Positions 14,553-21,615 of a DNA stretch of 21,812 bases are shown here, piece by piece. The stretch lies in the UHGV virus genome UHGV-1651579; one strand, written 5' to 3'. The translations under genes were made by a program, and so were the position numbers. The stretch's first letter is position 1. Each line of letters starts with the position of its first letter. Below the pieces are notes generated by a model. It was given only the letters and a program-made list of their open reading frames with translations. It did no database searches and was not told the DNA's origin. The DNA comes from a virus.

Positions 14553-14808
14553 GAGAACTGTTCTTGTGTGTCCGGGTTTCACGCAACACACGAGAAGCGA
14601 CGCTATTACGCACCTTCTCCATGCCTACTGTCGTGCCCTGATTAGCTATGGCGGTAGCTTGCACATTAATGCGCTTCTCCAGTTCAAACACTCGTTCTTC
14701 CAGTTCCGTAAGGCGTGCGGAAACACGACCACTAAACAGCTCGGTCAGCACCAGGCGAATTGAACGGGGACGTTTATTGAAAGAAGTGAAAGACGTTTGA
14801 CGGGCCAT
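14308..14808 (-). CDS. ORF with protein-like coiled-coil N-terminus (about 85 aa) then low-complexity tail; possible frameshifted gene
   Basis: ATG 14808; N-terminal LTELEERVFELEKRINVQ looks genuine, remainder is Ser/Gly/Asp-rich and overlaps CDS 14295-14552 in another frame. Confidence 0.3.
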   Translation of the reverse strand: MARQTSFTSFNKRPRSIRLVLTELFSGRVSARLTELEERVFELEKRINVQATAIANQGTTVGMEKVRNSVASRVLRETRTHKNSSHGKFSTKSTEVNGLRSDFGNSGSGYRTSRSEPFDAGHNYFHCHHSLADDTPARTTSCLSGWDADGHDSSSTCDSGSSFYSD

Positions 14809-14837: not shown

Positions 14838-14865
14838 GCGGCTGGCCAAGCCAGCCGCCTTTTGG
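14838..14865. terminator. GC-rich hairpin GCGGCTGG-ccaag-CCAGCCGC with T-tracts on both sides
   Basis: 8-bp stem; on plus strand followed by CTTTTGG; sits between P2 box 14942-14955 and ATG 14808. Confidence 0.4.
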
Positions 14866-14941
14866 CGTTCCATCCTGGAACCGTACCTAACCGGTACTTC
14901 GTCATCCTGACGATTTATAAGATACCTGATTTATTATAGTA

Positions 14942-14955
14942 GGTAAATACTTACT
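14942..14955 (-). promoter_or_regulatory. P2 box copy 3 (GGTAAATACTTACT)
   Basis: overlaps stop codon of RNase HI gene; TATAAT-like hexamer immediately downstream on minus strand. Confidence 0.5.
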
Positions 14956-15559
14956 TATACTTTTGTGACAAAAACCCAATGTCATGCTTGTGAGGCATAT
15001 CAGCTGCGGAATAGGCGGCGATCTTCGCCAGACGGTCACACATTTCGTTCTCGCGATGACCTGCATGGCCTTTAACCCACTTCCAGCGGACATTATGACG
15101 ACTGGCGGCCACGTCGAGACGTTTCCAGAGATCCACGTTTTTGACTGGCTTCTTCTCAGACGTGATCCATCCGTTACGCTTCCAGCCTTTCATCCAGAGC
15201 GTCATGCCGTTTTTAAGATACTGGCTGTCGGAATGCAGGATCACGTTGCAGGGGTACTTCAGACGCTCCAGCGCAATCAGGGCGCCCATCATCTCCATCC
15301 GATTGTTGGTCGTGCTGTGGAAGCCCTCAGAAAGCTCGCGCTCTTCGCCTCGATACTGGAGAACGATACCGTAACCGCCCGGCCCGCCCGGATTTTTGAG
15401 GCAGGAGCCATCACTGAATACTTTTACGGTTTTGAGCTGGGGATTGAACTCGACTACGGGTGTGTTGAAATTGGTACAGGAATGCTGGTGGGTTTGGCAT
15501 CTGGCTTTAGACTTCGTGCGGCAGCCAGTGCGTTGCCGGACTGGGTTCTTGGTCGTCAT
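14951..15559 (-). CDS. rnhA: RNase HI with about 45-aa basic Cys/His-containing N-terminal extension (202 aa)
   Basis: body aligns with E. coli RnhA ([43 protein letters not shown]); all four catalytic acidic residues present; ATG 15559 with GGAG 5 nt upstream. Confidence 0.85.
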
Positions 15560-15600
15560 TTTGGCTCCAGAATCGCGCGCCGCGACGATTTTTTTTCCCT

Positions 15601-15626
15601 CGCGCGTGTGCGCACGCGTGCGTGTA
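15601..15626. other. 26-nt perfect alternating pyrimidine-purine tract (CGCGCGTGTGCGCACGCGTGCGTGTA)
   Basis: about 45 nt upstream of rnhA ATG; potential Z-DNA-forming. Confidence 0.5.
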
Positions 15627-16136
15627 AATATTAAAAATTTTTTAGAAAAGAAAAATTACTTCCCAGAACAGGTTTTAATAAAACCTGAACTGAACGAACG
15701 AAGTGAGTGAAGTTCACCTCGAACGAAGTGAGAGGTTGTCTTTTCAAGTAATACTCTCCCAGTGAGGTGAGTACAAAATTTCCTCACCAACCTGGTCGTT
15801 TCATAACCTGAAAAGTTATGACCTAAGTCTACTGCCAGCTTAGGCTTGGGAAGTTATGGATGACAGCACCCCAGAACCGAGATCTTCCCACACTTTATGA
15901 AGGGGAGTACTGGATTCAACCTCTCGAAACACTCCAGACTCGACAATCATAAAGTGACCCTTCTCTCTGCCCACTTTGGTTCCCCCTTCCCCAACCCCTA
16001 AACGGTGCCGGTTCTACGCTGGTAGTGAGCTTTTTTAAACCTGACGCCAGTGACGCTATCCCCCACCCATCAGGTCGAGCTGCCGAAAGTATCCGGAAGC
16101 GGATAGATTGTATCACTGGTTAGTGGCGTTTTGAAT

Positions 16137-16150
16137 GGTAAGTACTTACC
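16137..16150 (-). promoter_or_regulatory. P2 box copy 4 (GGTAAGTACTTACC, perfect palindrome)
   Basis: just 3' of CDS 16153-16383; faces about 575 bp without a credible ORF before rnhA. Confidence 0.55.
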
Positions 16151-16152
16151 TA

Positions 16153-16383
16153 TTATATTGATTGATTAATTTCTCGCCCATGAAGCTGGACGTTCAGGGC
16201 AAACACCTCATTGATGAGTTCCCCTAACAGCTGTTCCACCAGCTCTTTGTGCTCGCCTGAATGAAGACATCTGAGCGACCATTCGTAGAGACTGAAAGCC
16301 TTATCGCGATCTTTCATCATGTCGCGCACTGTGGCCAGAAAATCGCTCTCAACGAGCGCTACGACGTTCGTCGGGTATACCAT
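16153..16383 (-). CDS. hypothetical protein (76 aa)
   Basis: ATG 16383 with AAGGA 8 nt upstream. Confidence 0.5.
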   Translation of the reverse strand: MVYPTNVVALVESDFLATVRDMMKDRDKAFSLYEWSLRCLHSGEHKELVEQLLGELINEVFALNVQLHGREINQSI

Positions 16384-16466
16384 GATAGTTTTCCTTACTG
16401 TGGTTCATAAAATCGATTCTAGAGCGTCTGAAGAGGGGTTCCAGTGGGTTCTGGAGGTGTAAAACG

Positions 16467-16579
16467 GTCTGGGAGTTGTTTGGAAATAACGTCTTAAAAA
16501 GCCTGCGTCTGTATATATTAATAATTAGTACTTAGTTATTTATATATACGGAAGCAGGTTCTCAAACTAACTCCCAGAC
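16467..16579. repeat. nested inverted repeat (outer GTCTGGGAGTT / AACTCCCAGAC; inner CCTGCGTCTGTATATAT / ATATATACGGAAGCAGG)
   Basis: 11-bp perfect outer arms 16467-16477 and 16569-16579; AT-rich centre contains AGTACT (P2-like half sites). Confidence 0.55.
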
Positions 16580-16585
16580 TGGTGT

Positions 16586-16972
16586 TTACGCTGCCTTTTT
16601 ACGTGGTCTCTTCTTCCTGACAACATTGGCAGGATCATAACCACCCAGCTTTTTCATCACCGCCAGCGGTATCTTGCTGATGGTGTGCCCAGCTTCCTGA
16701 CAGTAGCCACGGAAGATAAGCAACATGCTGCCACCAGGGTTGATGTTCACCTCCACCAGCCCAAGTTCAACATCCGGCTCAACGAACGCCACGCGGCCGC
16801 CAGACAAGATGACGGTTTCGTTGGCGCATTCAGCCGCACGCTCGTACCACTGCGTATCGAGGGATTGTGGTATCAGCATGACCGTCGTCACTCCACGCGC
16901 CTGCTCGCGAATGGCTGCGTCTATCCAGGGGGTGATTTTGGAGTAGGGCGGGTTGTCGCAAAAGCATCCCAA
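16586..16972 (-). pseudogene. 5'-truncated phage-type Dam-like N6-adenine methyltransferase fragment (C-terminal about 128 aa)
   Basis: begins at a TTG directly before CDNPPYS; upstream extension of the frame is not methyltransferase-like; AT-rich junction 16980-17160. Confidence 0.5.
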
Positions 16973-18253: not shown

Positions 18254-18360
18254 CTATCCACTATAGGGAGCAAAATAACCACTGTAGAGAGCATAATAAC
18301 CGCTATGAAGAGCAAAACAACCTCTCTGGAGAGTAGTCGGTATCCACTGTAGTGAGTAGG
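18254..18360 (+). repeat. RepFIB-type iterons, upstream cluster 1 (5 units)
   Basis: about 21-bp units (T/A)A(T/A)CCACTGTAG(T/A)GAG; block 18115-18360 duplicated at 18485-18770. Confidence 0.8.
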
Positions 18361-18647
18361 AGACAATGTTTTAACTGGATAACTCCGAGCCTGTTTTTCT
18401 GCGGCAGATGGCTGATATTCTTGGAAATATTGTAAATTTTGCGTTGCGGCGTGTTTATTTCGATCACACATTATCCCCAGAAGGGGAGTGATGCCTGATT
18501 TTGTAATTATCTGATTTTTATACACAGGCCCGATCCAGTAATTCAGATCCCTGTTAGAACCAAAGAGAACCACAAAGACCCAAAGAGATCCCCGGCCCCT
18601 GCAAACCGTTGTGCCACATGGCTTTAGAGGTTATCGATATCCACTAT

Positions 18648-18765
18648 AGTGAGAATAACAACCACTATAGAGAGTAAATCAACCACTATGGAGAGTAGAA
18701 AAACCGCTGTAGGCGGTAGGATAACCACTGTGATGGGTGCTACTATCCACTGTAATCAGTAAAGG
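18648..18765 (+). repeat. RepFIB-type iterons, upstream cluster 2 (6 units)
   Basis: same core as cluster 1. Confidence 0.8.
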
Positions 18766-18799: not shown

Positions 18800-19855
18800 A
18801 TGAGCGTAAACGACAATAAAAACATTGCGATAAGCGAAGCATTTTCCGAAACAGACAAAAAGACCGGCGAAGTTGTTACGTTAGTTCCTAACACCAACAA
18901 CACAGTTCAGCCTGTTGCTCTGATGCGTCTTGGTCTCTTCGTTCCGACGCTGAAATCGACATCCAGGGGTAGAAAGGGGCAAATGGTCTCTATGGACGCC
19001 TCCGCTGAACTCAAACAGCTGTCTCTGGCCAAAGCCGAAGGGTACGAGGATATAAGGATTGCTGGTCTTCGTCTTGATATGGATAACGATTTCAAAACAT
19101 GGGTGGGCATCATCCACGCGTTCGCCAAGCACAAGGTTGTTGGTGACACCGTCACGTTGCCGTTCGTCGAGTTCGTCAGACTTTGTGGCATACCAACAGC
19201 CAGATCGTCCGCGAAGTTACGTAAGCGCCTGGACAGCTCTCTAAGTCGTATCGCCACAAACACCATCTCATTCCGCAGCAAAGGCTCTGAAGAGTATTAC
19301 GTTACGCACCTTGTGCAGACGGCAAAGTACAGTACCAAGAATGACACGGTCGAACTGAAGGCCGATCCTAAGATTTTCGAACTTTACCAGTTCGACAAAA
19401 AGGTGCTTTTGCAACTTCGGGCCATCAACGAACTCTCCAGAAAAGAATCCGCGCAGGCGCTCTACACCTTCATTGAAAGTTTGCCACCAGACCCGGCGCC
19501 AATCTCATTGGCTCGCTTACGCGCCAGACTTAACTTAACCAGCCGCACCATTACCCAGAATGCGACAGTCAGGAAGGCGATGGAGCAGCTGCGAGAGATC
19601 GGCTATCTCGATTACACTGAAGTGAAACGCGGCAGCTCGGTCTACTTCGTCATCCACTATAGACGGCCGAAGTTACGTTCGGCACTGCCGCCATCTATGG
19701 CTACGCCTGAAGAGCCAGAAGATATTTTGCCAGGTGATGATCCGGAGGACATTATCGATGTTGCCCCTGAAGAAAAAGACGGGGAAATGGTCATGTTGAG
19801 CAAGGAAGAACTAGCGATTCTCGAAGAGCTGCGCAAGGCAAAGGCTCGCAAATAG
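18800..19855 (+). CDS. repA: RepA replication initiator, RepFIB family (351 aa)
   Basis: recalled similarity to RepFIB RepA ([67 protein letters not shown]); iterons on both sides. Confidence 0.85.
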
Positions 19856-20351: not shown

Positions 20352-20493
20352 TTGCTCACTACAGTGGTTGGGGTGCATACCCGAATGGTGTTTTACTCAC
20401 TACAGTGGTTGGGGTGCATACCCGAATGGTGTTCTACTCACTACAGTGGTTGGGGTGCATACCTGAAGGGTGTTCTACTCGCTACAGTGGTTA
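20352..20493. repeat. 41-bp tandem repeat, 3.5 units (TTACTCACTACAGTGGTTGGGGTGCATACCCGAATGGTGTT)
   Basis: period 41 bp measured between CTCAC starts at 20355, 20396, 20437, 20478; each unit contains one iteron core. Confidence 0.8.
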
Positions 20494-21601: not shown

Positions 21602-21615
21602 GGTAAGTACTTATC
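21602..21615 (-). promoter_or_regulatory. P2 box copy 6 (GGTAAGTACTTATC)
   Basis: about 17 nt upstream of ATG 21585, immediately after a TAAGAT -10-like hexamer; followed by CAACAAGGAAAAAACAC resembling the P1 cassette leader. Confidence 0.55.

Follow-up and report, generated by a model that had tools for sequence, protein, structure and literature searches.

The interval between positions 15,560 and 16,150 of the virus genome UHGV-1651579, a DNA stretch of 21,812 nucleotides (nt) which is referred to here as the window, probably contains a discrete minus-strand gene for a structured non-coding RNA (ncRNA) of ca. 455 nt, extending from ca. 16100 to ca. 15645. This reading is carried by sequence and promoter conservation, strand, structure, lack of coding and the abundance of a transcript in a close relative, and concerns a previously undescribed RNA without a match among the known families. 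Judged from its sequence, the source element of the window is a phage-plasmid of the SSU5/pHCM2 type. Such phage-plasmids are common in clinical Klebsiella, Escherichia coli, Enterobacter and Salmonella and spread resistance genes; to our knowledge, their regulation is almost unstudied. Positions 14900–16450 share 95% identity with Salmonella phage SSU5 and 99% with E. coli plasmids of ca. 110 kb, with matches in 12 phage records and 687 PLSDB plasmids from Klebsiella, Escherichia, Enterobacter, Salmonella (including S. Typhi pHCM2), Citrobacter and Cronobacter. The region is carried by 260 of 5,426 complete E. coli genomes, which places the RNA in ca. 5% of them. The best conserved piece of this part of the backbone is an unannotated RNA and not a protein, now available as a defined object: it has approximate coordinates, a promoter and a structural model, and 61 distinct sequences of it have been aligned.

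The interval separates rnhA, encoding RNase HI, from an open reading frame (ORF) for a protein of 76 amino acids (aa). The first-pass annotation of the window described it as devoid of a credible ORF, and this is borne out, as no ORF in it is conserved among homologues. A conserved small ORF was sought in 61 distinct homologous sequences, drawn from IMG/VR and databases, and none was found; every ORF of at least 30 aa overlapping the block is broken in 16 to 60 of them. The 66-aa ORF called at 15916–16116 is intact in 10 homologues and broken in 51, and a 44-aa ORF at 15840–15974, annotated as CYRAN_81 in the relative Cyrano, carries a frameshift or stop in 17. The latter is broken across the whole Klebsiella-type and S. 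Derby AnCo3-type lineages, with the nucleotides conserved past the frameshifts. One 20-aa ORF is intact in all 61, only because its columns are nearly invariant. The conservation of the block has no third-position pattern and runs far past any ORF.

Alignment of the window with nine divergent relatives (including SSU5, pHCM2, Cyrano and plasmids of Cronobacter, S. Derby, K. quasipneumoniae, K. pneumoniae and E. coli) gave 90.4–98.7% identity over the core of the block, 15689–16083, compared with 78.8–96.7% for the catalytic core of rnhA and 75.8–96.5% for the 76-aa ORF. In lineages where the block is 90–99% identical, these flanking genes fall to as low as 76–84%. Identity drops sharply outside the core, to 54–75% in 16084–16152 and 63–93% in 15560–15688, while full 20-nt stretches are invariant across the 61 sequences. 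A non-coding block that is clearly better conserved than the adjacent genes, and that has sharp edges, indicates purifying selection of its own. Searches for more distant relatives (a scan of viral contigs, a scan of genome contigs with a profile of the 76-aa protein, and a distant-homology blastn against phages) returned the same narrow family only, with at least 84.6% identity over a 593-bp intergenic query and at least 91.5% over the RNA; the genome-contig scan added only two Kluyvera loci.

Structure prediction and covariance analysis over the homologues, both proposed in the first-pass annotation, agree in selecting the minus strand. RNAalifold, applied to the minus strand of the 61 sequences, gave 128 base pairs in 19 helices (H1–H19) arranged in four domains, with canonical pairs in 99.8% of cells (53 distinct rows). 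Changes on both sides of a pair occur in 11 pairs (115 cells), compared with 7.8 pairs and 30 cells in column shuffles, none of 500 of which reached the observed values. Structures slid by 1–3 columns, so that phylogeny is kept, yielded 1–4 such pairs and 3–20 cells, with only 37–49% of cells paired. Compensatory changes are found in H1, H2, H3, H8, H14 and H19, and one-sided G-U changes in H4, H9, H10, H11, H13 and H15 as well as in further pairs of the six compensated helices. G-U pairs make up 11.4% of cells and turn into mismatches on the plus strand, where the same helices are only 88.5% canonical, and it is on this basis that the minus strand is assigned. The z-score of the minimum free energy against shuffles is −3.8 for the minus strand and −2.8 for the plus strand. 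The strongest single case of covariation is the 5'-terminal hairpin H1, which lies in a poorly conserved zone and exists in at least five sequence versions, the stem being kept in all.

Several short elements that had been noticed in the raw sequence find a place in this fold, and all lie at the coordinates given for them or no more than ca. 10 bp away. The palindrome GGTGAG...CTCACC is present and corresponds to helix H16, and a GA-rich minus-strand segment reported at about 15960–16010 was recovered as the G-rich tract of the H3 domain. The double repeat placed at about 15704–15731 is CGAACGAAGTGAG, whose copies lie ca. 9 bp further left, at 15695–15707 and 15720–15732, with the second reported element, GTGAAGTTCAC, between them. 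An RNA G-quadruplex was considered and rejected, since two of its G-tracts, the first and the fourth, vary from lineage to lineage. Covariation was also used to look for additional pseudoknot helices, where the signal was swamped by clade structure.

Directly upstream of the RNA, the predicted promoter and a palindrome lie side by side. The perfect palindrome reported at the right edge of the interval is present at exactly the position given for it. The accompanying claim of a "P2" promoter holds in so far as a minus-strand promoter adjoins the palindrome; the palindrome itself is not that promoter. TTCAAA-17 nt-TGaTACAAT is recognisable as a conserved sigma-70 promoter immediately downstream of the palindrome, with hexamers and 17-nt spacing constant over six lineages whose spacer sequences differ. 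The upstream TG occupies the canonical extended −10 position in five of the six lineages and is one base nearer the hexamer in the Klebsiella type. Transcription would start at a G at ca. 16100, the first base of H1.

Motifs matching GGTAAGTACTTACC with at most three mismatches occur 7 times in the window against 0.46 expected, a count reached in none of 100 shuffles. Palindromes of this kind were seen at 508, 3216, 10010, 14942, 16137, 16523, 17138 and 21602, ahead of minus-strand genes. Most of the other copies have a −10-like TAnnAT 1 nt upstream, so that the palindrome overlaps the transcription start in the manner of a repressor operator; the copy at 21602 is followed by a start codon after only 18 nt. 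The dispersed copies are presumably bound by a regulator and look like the operator set of a single phage-plasmid regulator. The site at 16137 likewise has a TATAAT 1 nt upstream, one that overlaps the stop codon at the end of the 76-aa ORF. Here the palindrome could act against read-through or against an upstream promoter and at the same time touch the −35 element of the RNA promoter.

Evidence for a transcript comes from the phage-plasmid Cyrano, whose copy of the RNA is 97.5% identical to that of the window. In E. coli LF82 carrying Cyrano, CYRAN_81, which lies inside the block, is expressed 12-fold above the prophage background in the lysogen (PMC9928086). A supplementary table of re-analysed RNA-seq reports log2(FPKM+5) values in replicate pairs for five conditions (PMC9928086). 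For CYRAN_81, the 76-aa ORF and rnhA, in that order, these are 6.8/6.9, 3.4/3.1 and 2.6/3.4 in LB; 9.3/9.0, 4.6/4.2 and 3.9/3.8 after 1 h in medium; 6.9/6.9, 4.1/4.1 and 4.4/4.3 after 6 h in medium; 9.0/8.2, 5.8/5.1 and 4.7/4.0 after 1 h in macrophages; and 10.4/10.3, 5.2/5.0 and 5.0/4.8 after 6 h in macrophages (PMC9928086). The CYRAN_81 feature thus stands ca. 7–60-fold over both neighbours, which argues that the block is transcribed from its own start and that the signal does not persist at that level into rnhA. The minus-strand transcript envisaged by the first-pass annotation is supported by the choice of strand, by a promoter with a start at ca. 16100 and by these counts, which may not be strand-specific. 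In the same LF82 table a further Cyrano gene (OV696614), CYRAN_43, which falls outside the coverage of the window and is annotated as "hypothetical protein", exceeds the prophage background 723-fold in lysogens and might likewise be a mis-annotated RNA, or else a transcript of the toxin-antitoxin type.

The 3' end is placed at the U-rich tract AAUUUUUCUUUUCU, a candidate terminator tail. The spacer that follows toward rnhA consists of an AT-rich stretch, an alternating purine-pyrimidine tract, an A8 run, a GC hairpin and the rnhA ribosome-binding site. The alternating tract has a Z-DNA-forming composition and accompanies the RNA even in the variants without rnhA at this position. In the plus-strand direction the hairpin with its T8 resembles an intrinsic terminator; in the minus-strand direction the same bases form the A8 run and a hairpin just ahead of the ribosome-binding site.

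The RNA is separable from rnhA. It is intact in plasmids where rnhA is absent from the position and unrelated sequence follows the A-run (loci L078, L079 and L067, and PLSDB sequences H50 and H52–H54). It is equally separable from the replicon, as it co-occurs with IncFIB and with rep_clusters 763 and 488; at least three replicon types speak against a copy-number control RNA that depends on a single initiator.

A second class of RNA occupies the same slot in another lineage. In 30 Klebsiella plasmids with a 76-aa protein ca. 50% identical to that of the window, the gene order is the same and the gap of ca. 570 nt is filled by different sequence. This sequence encodes a predicted structured RNA. 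A promoter of its own is present, as is a longer palindrome, AGTAAGTAAcaaTTTACTTAT, that overlaps the −35 element; the RNA has a covarying 5' hairpin, 12 double-change pairs (7 sequences) and a clear hairpin-T7 terminator, and its fold reaches −135 kcal/mol on the sense strand compared with −97 on the opposite one. Like the first class, it is retained where rnhA has been replaced. No similarity between the classes was detected by nhmmer with all filters off, and the class 2 RNA has no match in Rfam. Homology of the two was rejected: shared 7–9-mers are at chance level and the helix topologies differ, and the classes are consequently treated as analogous. That one position should be filled by two structured RNAs equal in size but unrelated in sequence suggests that this slot carries a discrete RNA function under selection. 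In the most distant relative, a Moellerella wisconsensis plasmid (L087, 3178–4149), the slot is organised differently, with a 76-aa homologue, a 113-aa ORF, ca. 970 nt without an annotated gene, and no RNase H.

Table 1. Positions of the RNA, its helices and control sequences, and neighbouring features (window coordinates, except for the class 2 RNA)
Feature	Position	Strand	Remarks
Predicted ncRNA, ca. 455 nt, 19 helices	15645..16100	-	core 15689-16083; both ends predicted
Perfect 14-bp palindrome GGTAAGTACTTACC	16137..16150	.	ca. -50 to -37 relative to the RNA promoter
-35 hexamer TTCAAA	16130..16135	-	TT(T/C)A.. at exact 17-nt spacing in six lineages
Extended -10 TGaTACAAT	16107..16115	-	hexamer TAnnAT kept in every variant
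H1, 5'-terminal hairpin	16079..16100	-	begins at predicted +1; 3 of 6 pairs with double changes
H2, long hairpin with conserved GGGUGGGGGA	16038..16076	-	15 pairs, 3 compensatory, 100% paired
H3 domain	15969..16030	-	encloses H4 and the invariant, mostly unpaired purine tract GGGGAAGGGGGAACCAAAGUG (15978-15999)
Central multi-branch domain	15730..15967	-	closed by H6/H7
H8-H11, long hairpin	15891-15956	-	central domain; H8 compensatory
H12-H13	15847-15890	-	central domain; H12 hardly varies
H14	15821-15845	-	central domain; compensatory changes
H15-H16	15741-15814	-	central domain; both hardly vary
3' domain, stem ACUUC/GAAGU (H17) around H18	15658..15729	-	H18 holds GUGAACUUCAC, with one CUCACUUCGUUCG repeat on either side
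H19, A/U hairpin	15663-15693	-	3' domain; covaries U-A to G-C
U-rich tract AAUUUUUCUUUUCU	15644..15657	-	directly after the 3' domain in the window and SSU5; candidate terminator tail
Perfectly alternating purine-pyrimidine tract (CG/CA)n, 25 nt	15601..15625	.	pattern and composition conserved; length and exact sequence not
GC hairpin + T8	15573..15596	+	intrinsic-terminator-like; antisense to rnhA start, pointing toward the RNA gene
ORF for 76-aa helical protein, PHROG 5343	16153..16383	-	constant gene directly upstream of the RNA slot
rnhA, RNase HI	14951..15559	-	Pfam RNase_H 2e-45; Shine-Dalgarno GGAG 15565-15568
Plasmid replicon, Rep3-family initiator	18800-19855		ca. 2 kb right of the RNA block
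21-bp iterons CCACTATAGAGAGCAAAATAA, two arrays	18258-18333 and 18641-18712		part of the replicon
41-bp repeat, 3.4 copies	20355-20492		downstream of the Rep3 gene
Class 2 structured RNA, ca. 430 nt	L085 2760-3195		K. oxytoca pCAV1015-111; also L086, L088-L092

For the exact ends, termination, action in trans and the partner of the RNA, we infer the following sequence of events. Host RNA polymerase with sigma-70 would start at the conserved promoter abutting the palindromic regulator site, and the transcript would form first the 5' hairpin and then the four domains of 19 helices. Most transcripts would end, or be trimmed, at the branched 3' domain and its U-rich tail, so that the RNA would accumulate far above its neighbours, with a minor read-through fraction probably supplying rnhA mRNA. 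It is in its folded form that the RNA would then act in trans. Loops and a purine tract with next to no variation suggest that it binds a partner equally well conserved across Enterobacteriaceae, which might be a host factor or a conserved phage component, rather than a fast-evolving phage gene.

Several points weigh against a discrete, trans-acting RNA. The expression feature in Cyrano is only 135 nt long, and its counts may not be strand-specific. The Cyrano palindrome is degenerate, matching at 10 of 14 positions, so that regulation in the present plasmid may differ. The ends of the RNA are placed by prediction, and the U-tract is weak in Klebsiella-type and some other lineages, which means that termination might be incomplete, might depend on Rho, or might give way to processing. 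In the spacer that separates the RNA from rnhA, no promoter for the gene was found, making the RNA the physical 5' part of any rnhA mRNA. Regarding structure, ca. 70% of the pairs never vary, and with few clades, in which many column pairs outside the structure also seem to covary, independent compensatory events are few. Finally, no target or partner emerged: the remainder of the window holds no significantly complementary sequence, and E. coli chromosomes returned no widespread match.

The earlier suggestion of either a long structured leader or an independent ncRNA stands as regards a structured minus-strand RNA, and between its two halves the discrete RNA is favoured over a simple leader by the 7–60-fold drop of reads into rnhA, the persistence of the RNA where rnhA is missing and the clear terminator of the analogous class. 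Possible, if unlikely, is that the RNA is a cis-acting leader of rnhA, similar to an attenuator or riboswitch, in which the 3' hairpin and U-tract set the flow into rnhA and the abundant short species is the terminated "off" product. The RNA is indeed co-directional with rnhA and directly upstream of it, with no further promoter in between, and the read drop between the two would be expected of such a leader, as would a GC hairpin just ahead of the rnhA ribosome-binding site. In addition, UGGGAAG at 15882–15888 and at 15659–15665 can both pair with CUUCCCA at 15848–15854, allowing alternative folds; these pairings, however, all lie in invariant columns, beyond covariation testing. A leader also sits poorly with an RNA that is much better conserved than rnhA itself, and that in both classes is kept without rnhA at the position. 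At ca. 455 nt and 19 helices it is far above the size of known leaders of this kind, and no known riboswitch aptamer or leader model in Rfam matched it.

Improbable is a role as the primer or R-loop RNA of an origin in the style of ColE1 RNA II, hybridising to its template near 15601–15657, where the adjacent RNase HI would cut the hybrid to leave a primer for DNA polymerase, for example in lytic replication. The resemblance to RNA II is one of anatomy: a long (ca. 450–550 nt) structured plasmid transcript with a sigma-70 promoter, 5' stem-loops and a link to RNase H, here joined by the invariant, G-rich unpaired tract at 15978–15999, an AT-rich stretch with the conserved alternating tract downstream, and an active-looking RNase HI as the next gene. 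Unlike RNA II, the present RNA has no similarity in sequence or covariance model and no RNA I (RF00106) match, and a plus-strand promoter and terminator pair was not found opposite 16000–16100. Furthermore, its 3' end is terminator-like and the analogous class 2 RNA stops at a strong terminator, the plasmid is already served by a Rep3 initiator with iterons 2 kb away, the locus lacks a GC-skew switch, and the RNA is kept in plasmids without rnhA at the position. Expression in the lysogen occurs without runaway replication, the published copy number being 5.5 (PMC9928086).

It is very improbable that the conserved object is a DNA element such as a single-strand initiation signal, a packaging site or a protein-binding array. 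The strand-specific hairpins could form in single-stranded DNA as well, and the region lies in a DNA-metabolism module 2 kb from the replicon; however, a conserved promoter is aimed into the block, the Cyrano transcript is abundant, the 11% of G-U pairs, many of them invariant, are typical of RNA, and the block holds no iterons or repeated protein sites beyond a single pair of 13-mers. Scarcely credible is a small protein encoded by the 44-aa ORF, which was called by the Cyrano annotators and is intact in 44 of the 61 homologues, or by the 66-aa ORF, given the lineage-wide breaks of the former with nucleotide conservation undisturbed, the few intact copies of the latter, and conservation that lacks codon periodicity and extends far beyond either.

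The discrete ncRNA was compared with known families. Rfam 15 (4,227 covariance models) gave no match at gathering threshold in the whole window, and a permissive search (E-value up to 10) of 14900–16600 returned only chance hits of the microRNA type, the sole one inside the block being mir-375 at 15.1 bits against a threshold of 46.7 bits. ARAGORN found no tRNA or tmRNA genes. The P1/P7 c4 RNA (RF01695), P4 CI RNA and N15 CB RNA are likewise phage-plasmid ncRNAs, expressed in lysogens from operator-controlled early or regulatory regions, but are ca. 70–100 nt long and act by short antisense pairing with their own operon; RF01695 did not match here, the present RNA is far longer at ca. 455 nt, and no sites significantly complementary to it were present in the window. 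ROOL, GOLLD, OLE and raiA share a length of several hundred nt, many helices, strong sequence conservation down to the loops and an association with mobile elements, often phages or prophages in the case of these families. They differ in that none of their covariance models matched at gathering or permissive thresholds, the hosts here are Enterobacteriaceae phage-plasmids, and there is no tRNA neighbourhood. 6S and CsrB/CsrC offer a likeness as abundant, stable, structured RNAs whose conservation is set by a conserved host protein partner, the kind of partner proposed here; in contrast to them, the present RNA has no 6S-like central bubble, no GGA enrichment and no Rfam match. A CsrA sponge was accordingly rejected, with 9 GGA motifs against 7.8 expected.

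Beyond a discrete ncRNA, it is conceivable, but decidedly unlikely, that this is the founding member of a new class of large, ornate phage-plasmid RNAs (a ribonucleoprotein scaffold, ribozyme-like RNA or host-factor decoy), the most constrained element of the SSU5/pHCM2 backbone, in a slot filled by non-homologous RNAs of the same size. If true, the plasmid or lytic lifestyle would depend on an essential function carried out by RNA, perhaps in concert with the adjacent RNase H on RNA-DNA hybrids.

No record annotates an RNA gene at this position, and nearly every record listed has no feature there at all; in RefSeq the block is empty in 261 E. coli records. The exception is Cyrano, with the small hypothetical ORF CYRAN_81. 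Full-text literature searches found no description of the present RNA. Annotated starts of rnhA vary among records, the SSU5 version reaching 156 nt into the RNA gene, so that both CYRAN_81 and the extended SSU5 RNase H ORF overlap the RNA and call for correction.

The RNA block is housed in a DNA-metabolism module in which every gene lies on the minus strand, in the order adenine methyltransferase, 76-aa ORF, gap, RNase HI and then small ORFs without an assigned role. The 76-aa protein has no Pfam family, and its PDB matches are non-specific coiled-coil ones only. The RNase HI carries a variable, basic N-terminal extension of ca. 45 aa with cysteines; its first 40 codons (15441–15559) are 54–68% identical in six of the nine relatives and ca. 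90% identical in SSU5, pHCM2 and K. quasipneumoniae. To the right of the module, the array of 41-bp repeats beyond the Rep3 gene could be a partition or incompatibility site.

Two further observations were made elsewhere in the window. A strong terminator-like hairpin at 14838–14858 on the minus strand (9 pairs, 8 of them GC, with a U-rich tail) separates the palindrome and promoter at 14942 from a 166-aa ORF starting at 14808. It falls inside the 5' untranslated region of that gene, for which it may be an attenuator. A stretch of ca. 900 bp at 4960–5900 is nearly free of ORFs and has a strong plus-strand G+T bias, the GC skew being +0.19 and the AT skew −0.22 over 4501–6750, and may be another non-coding element.

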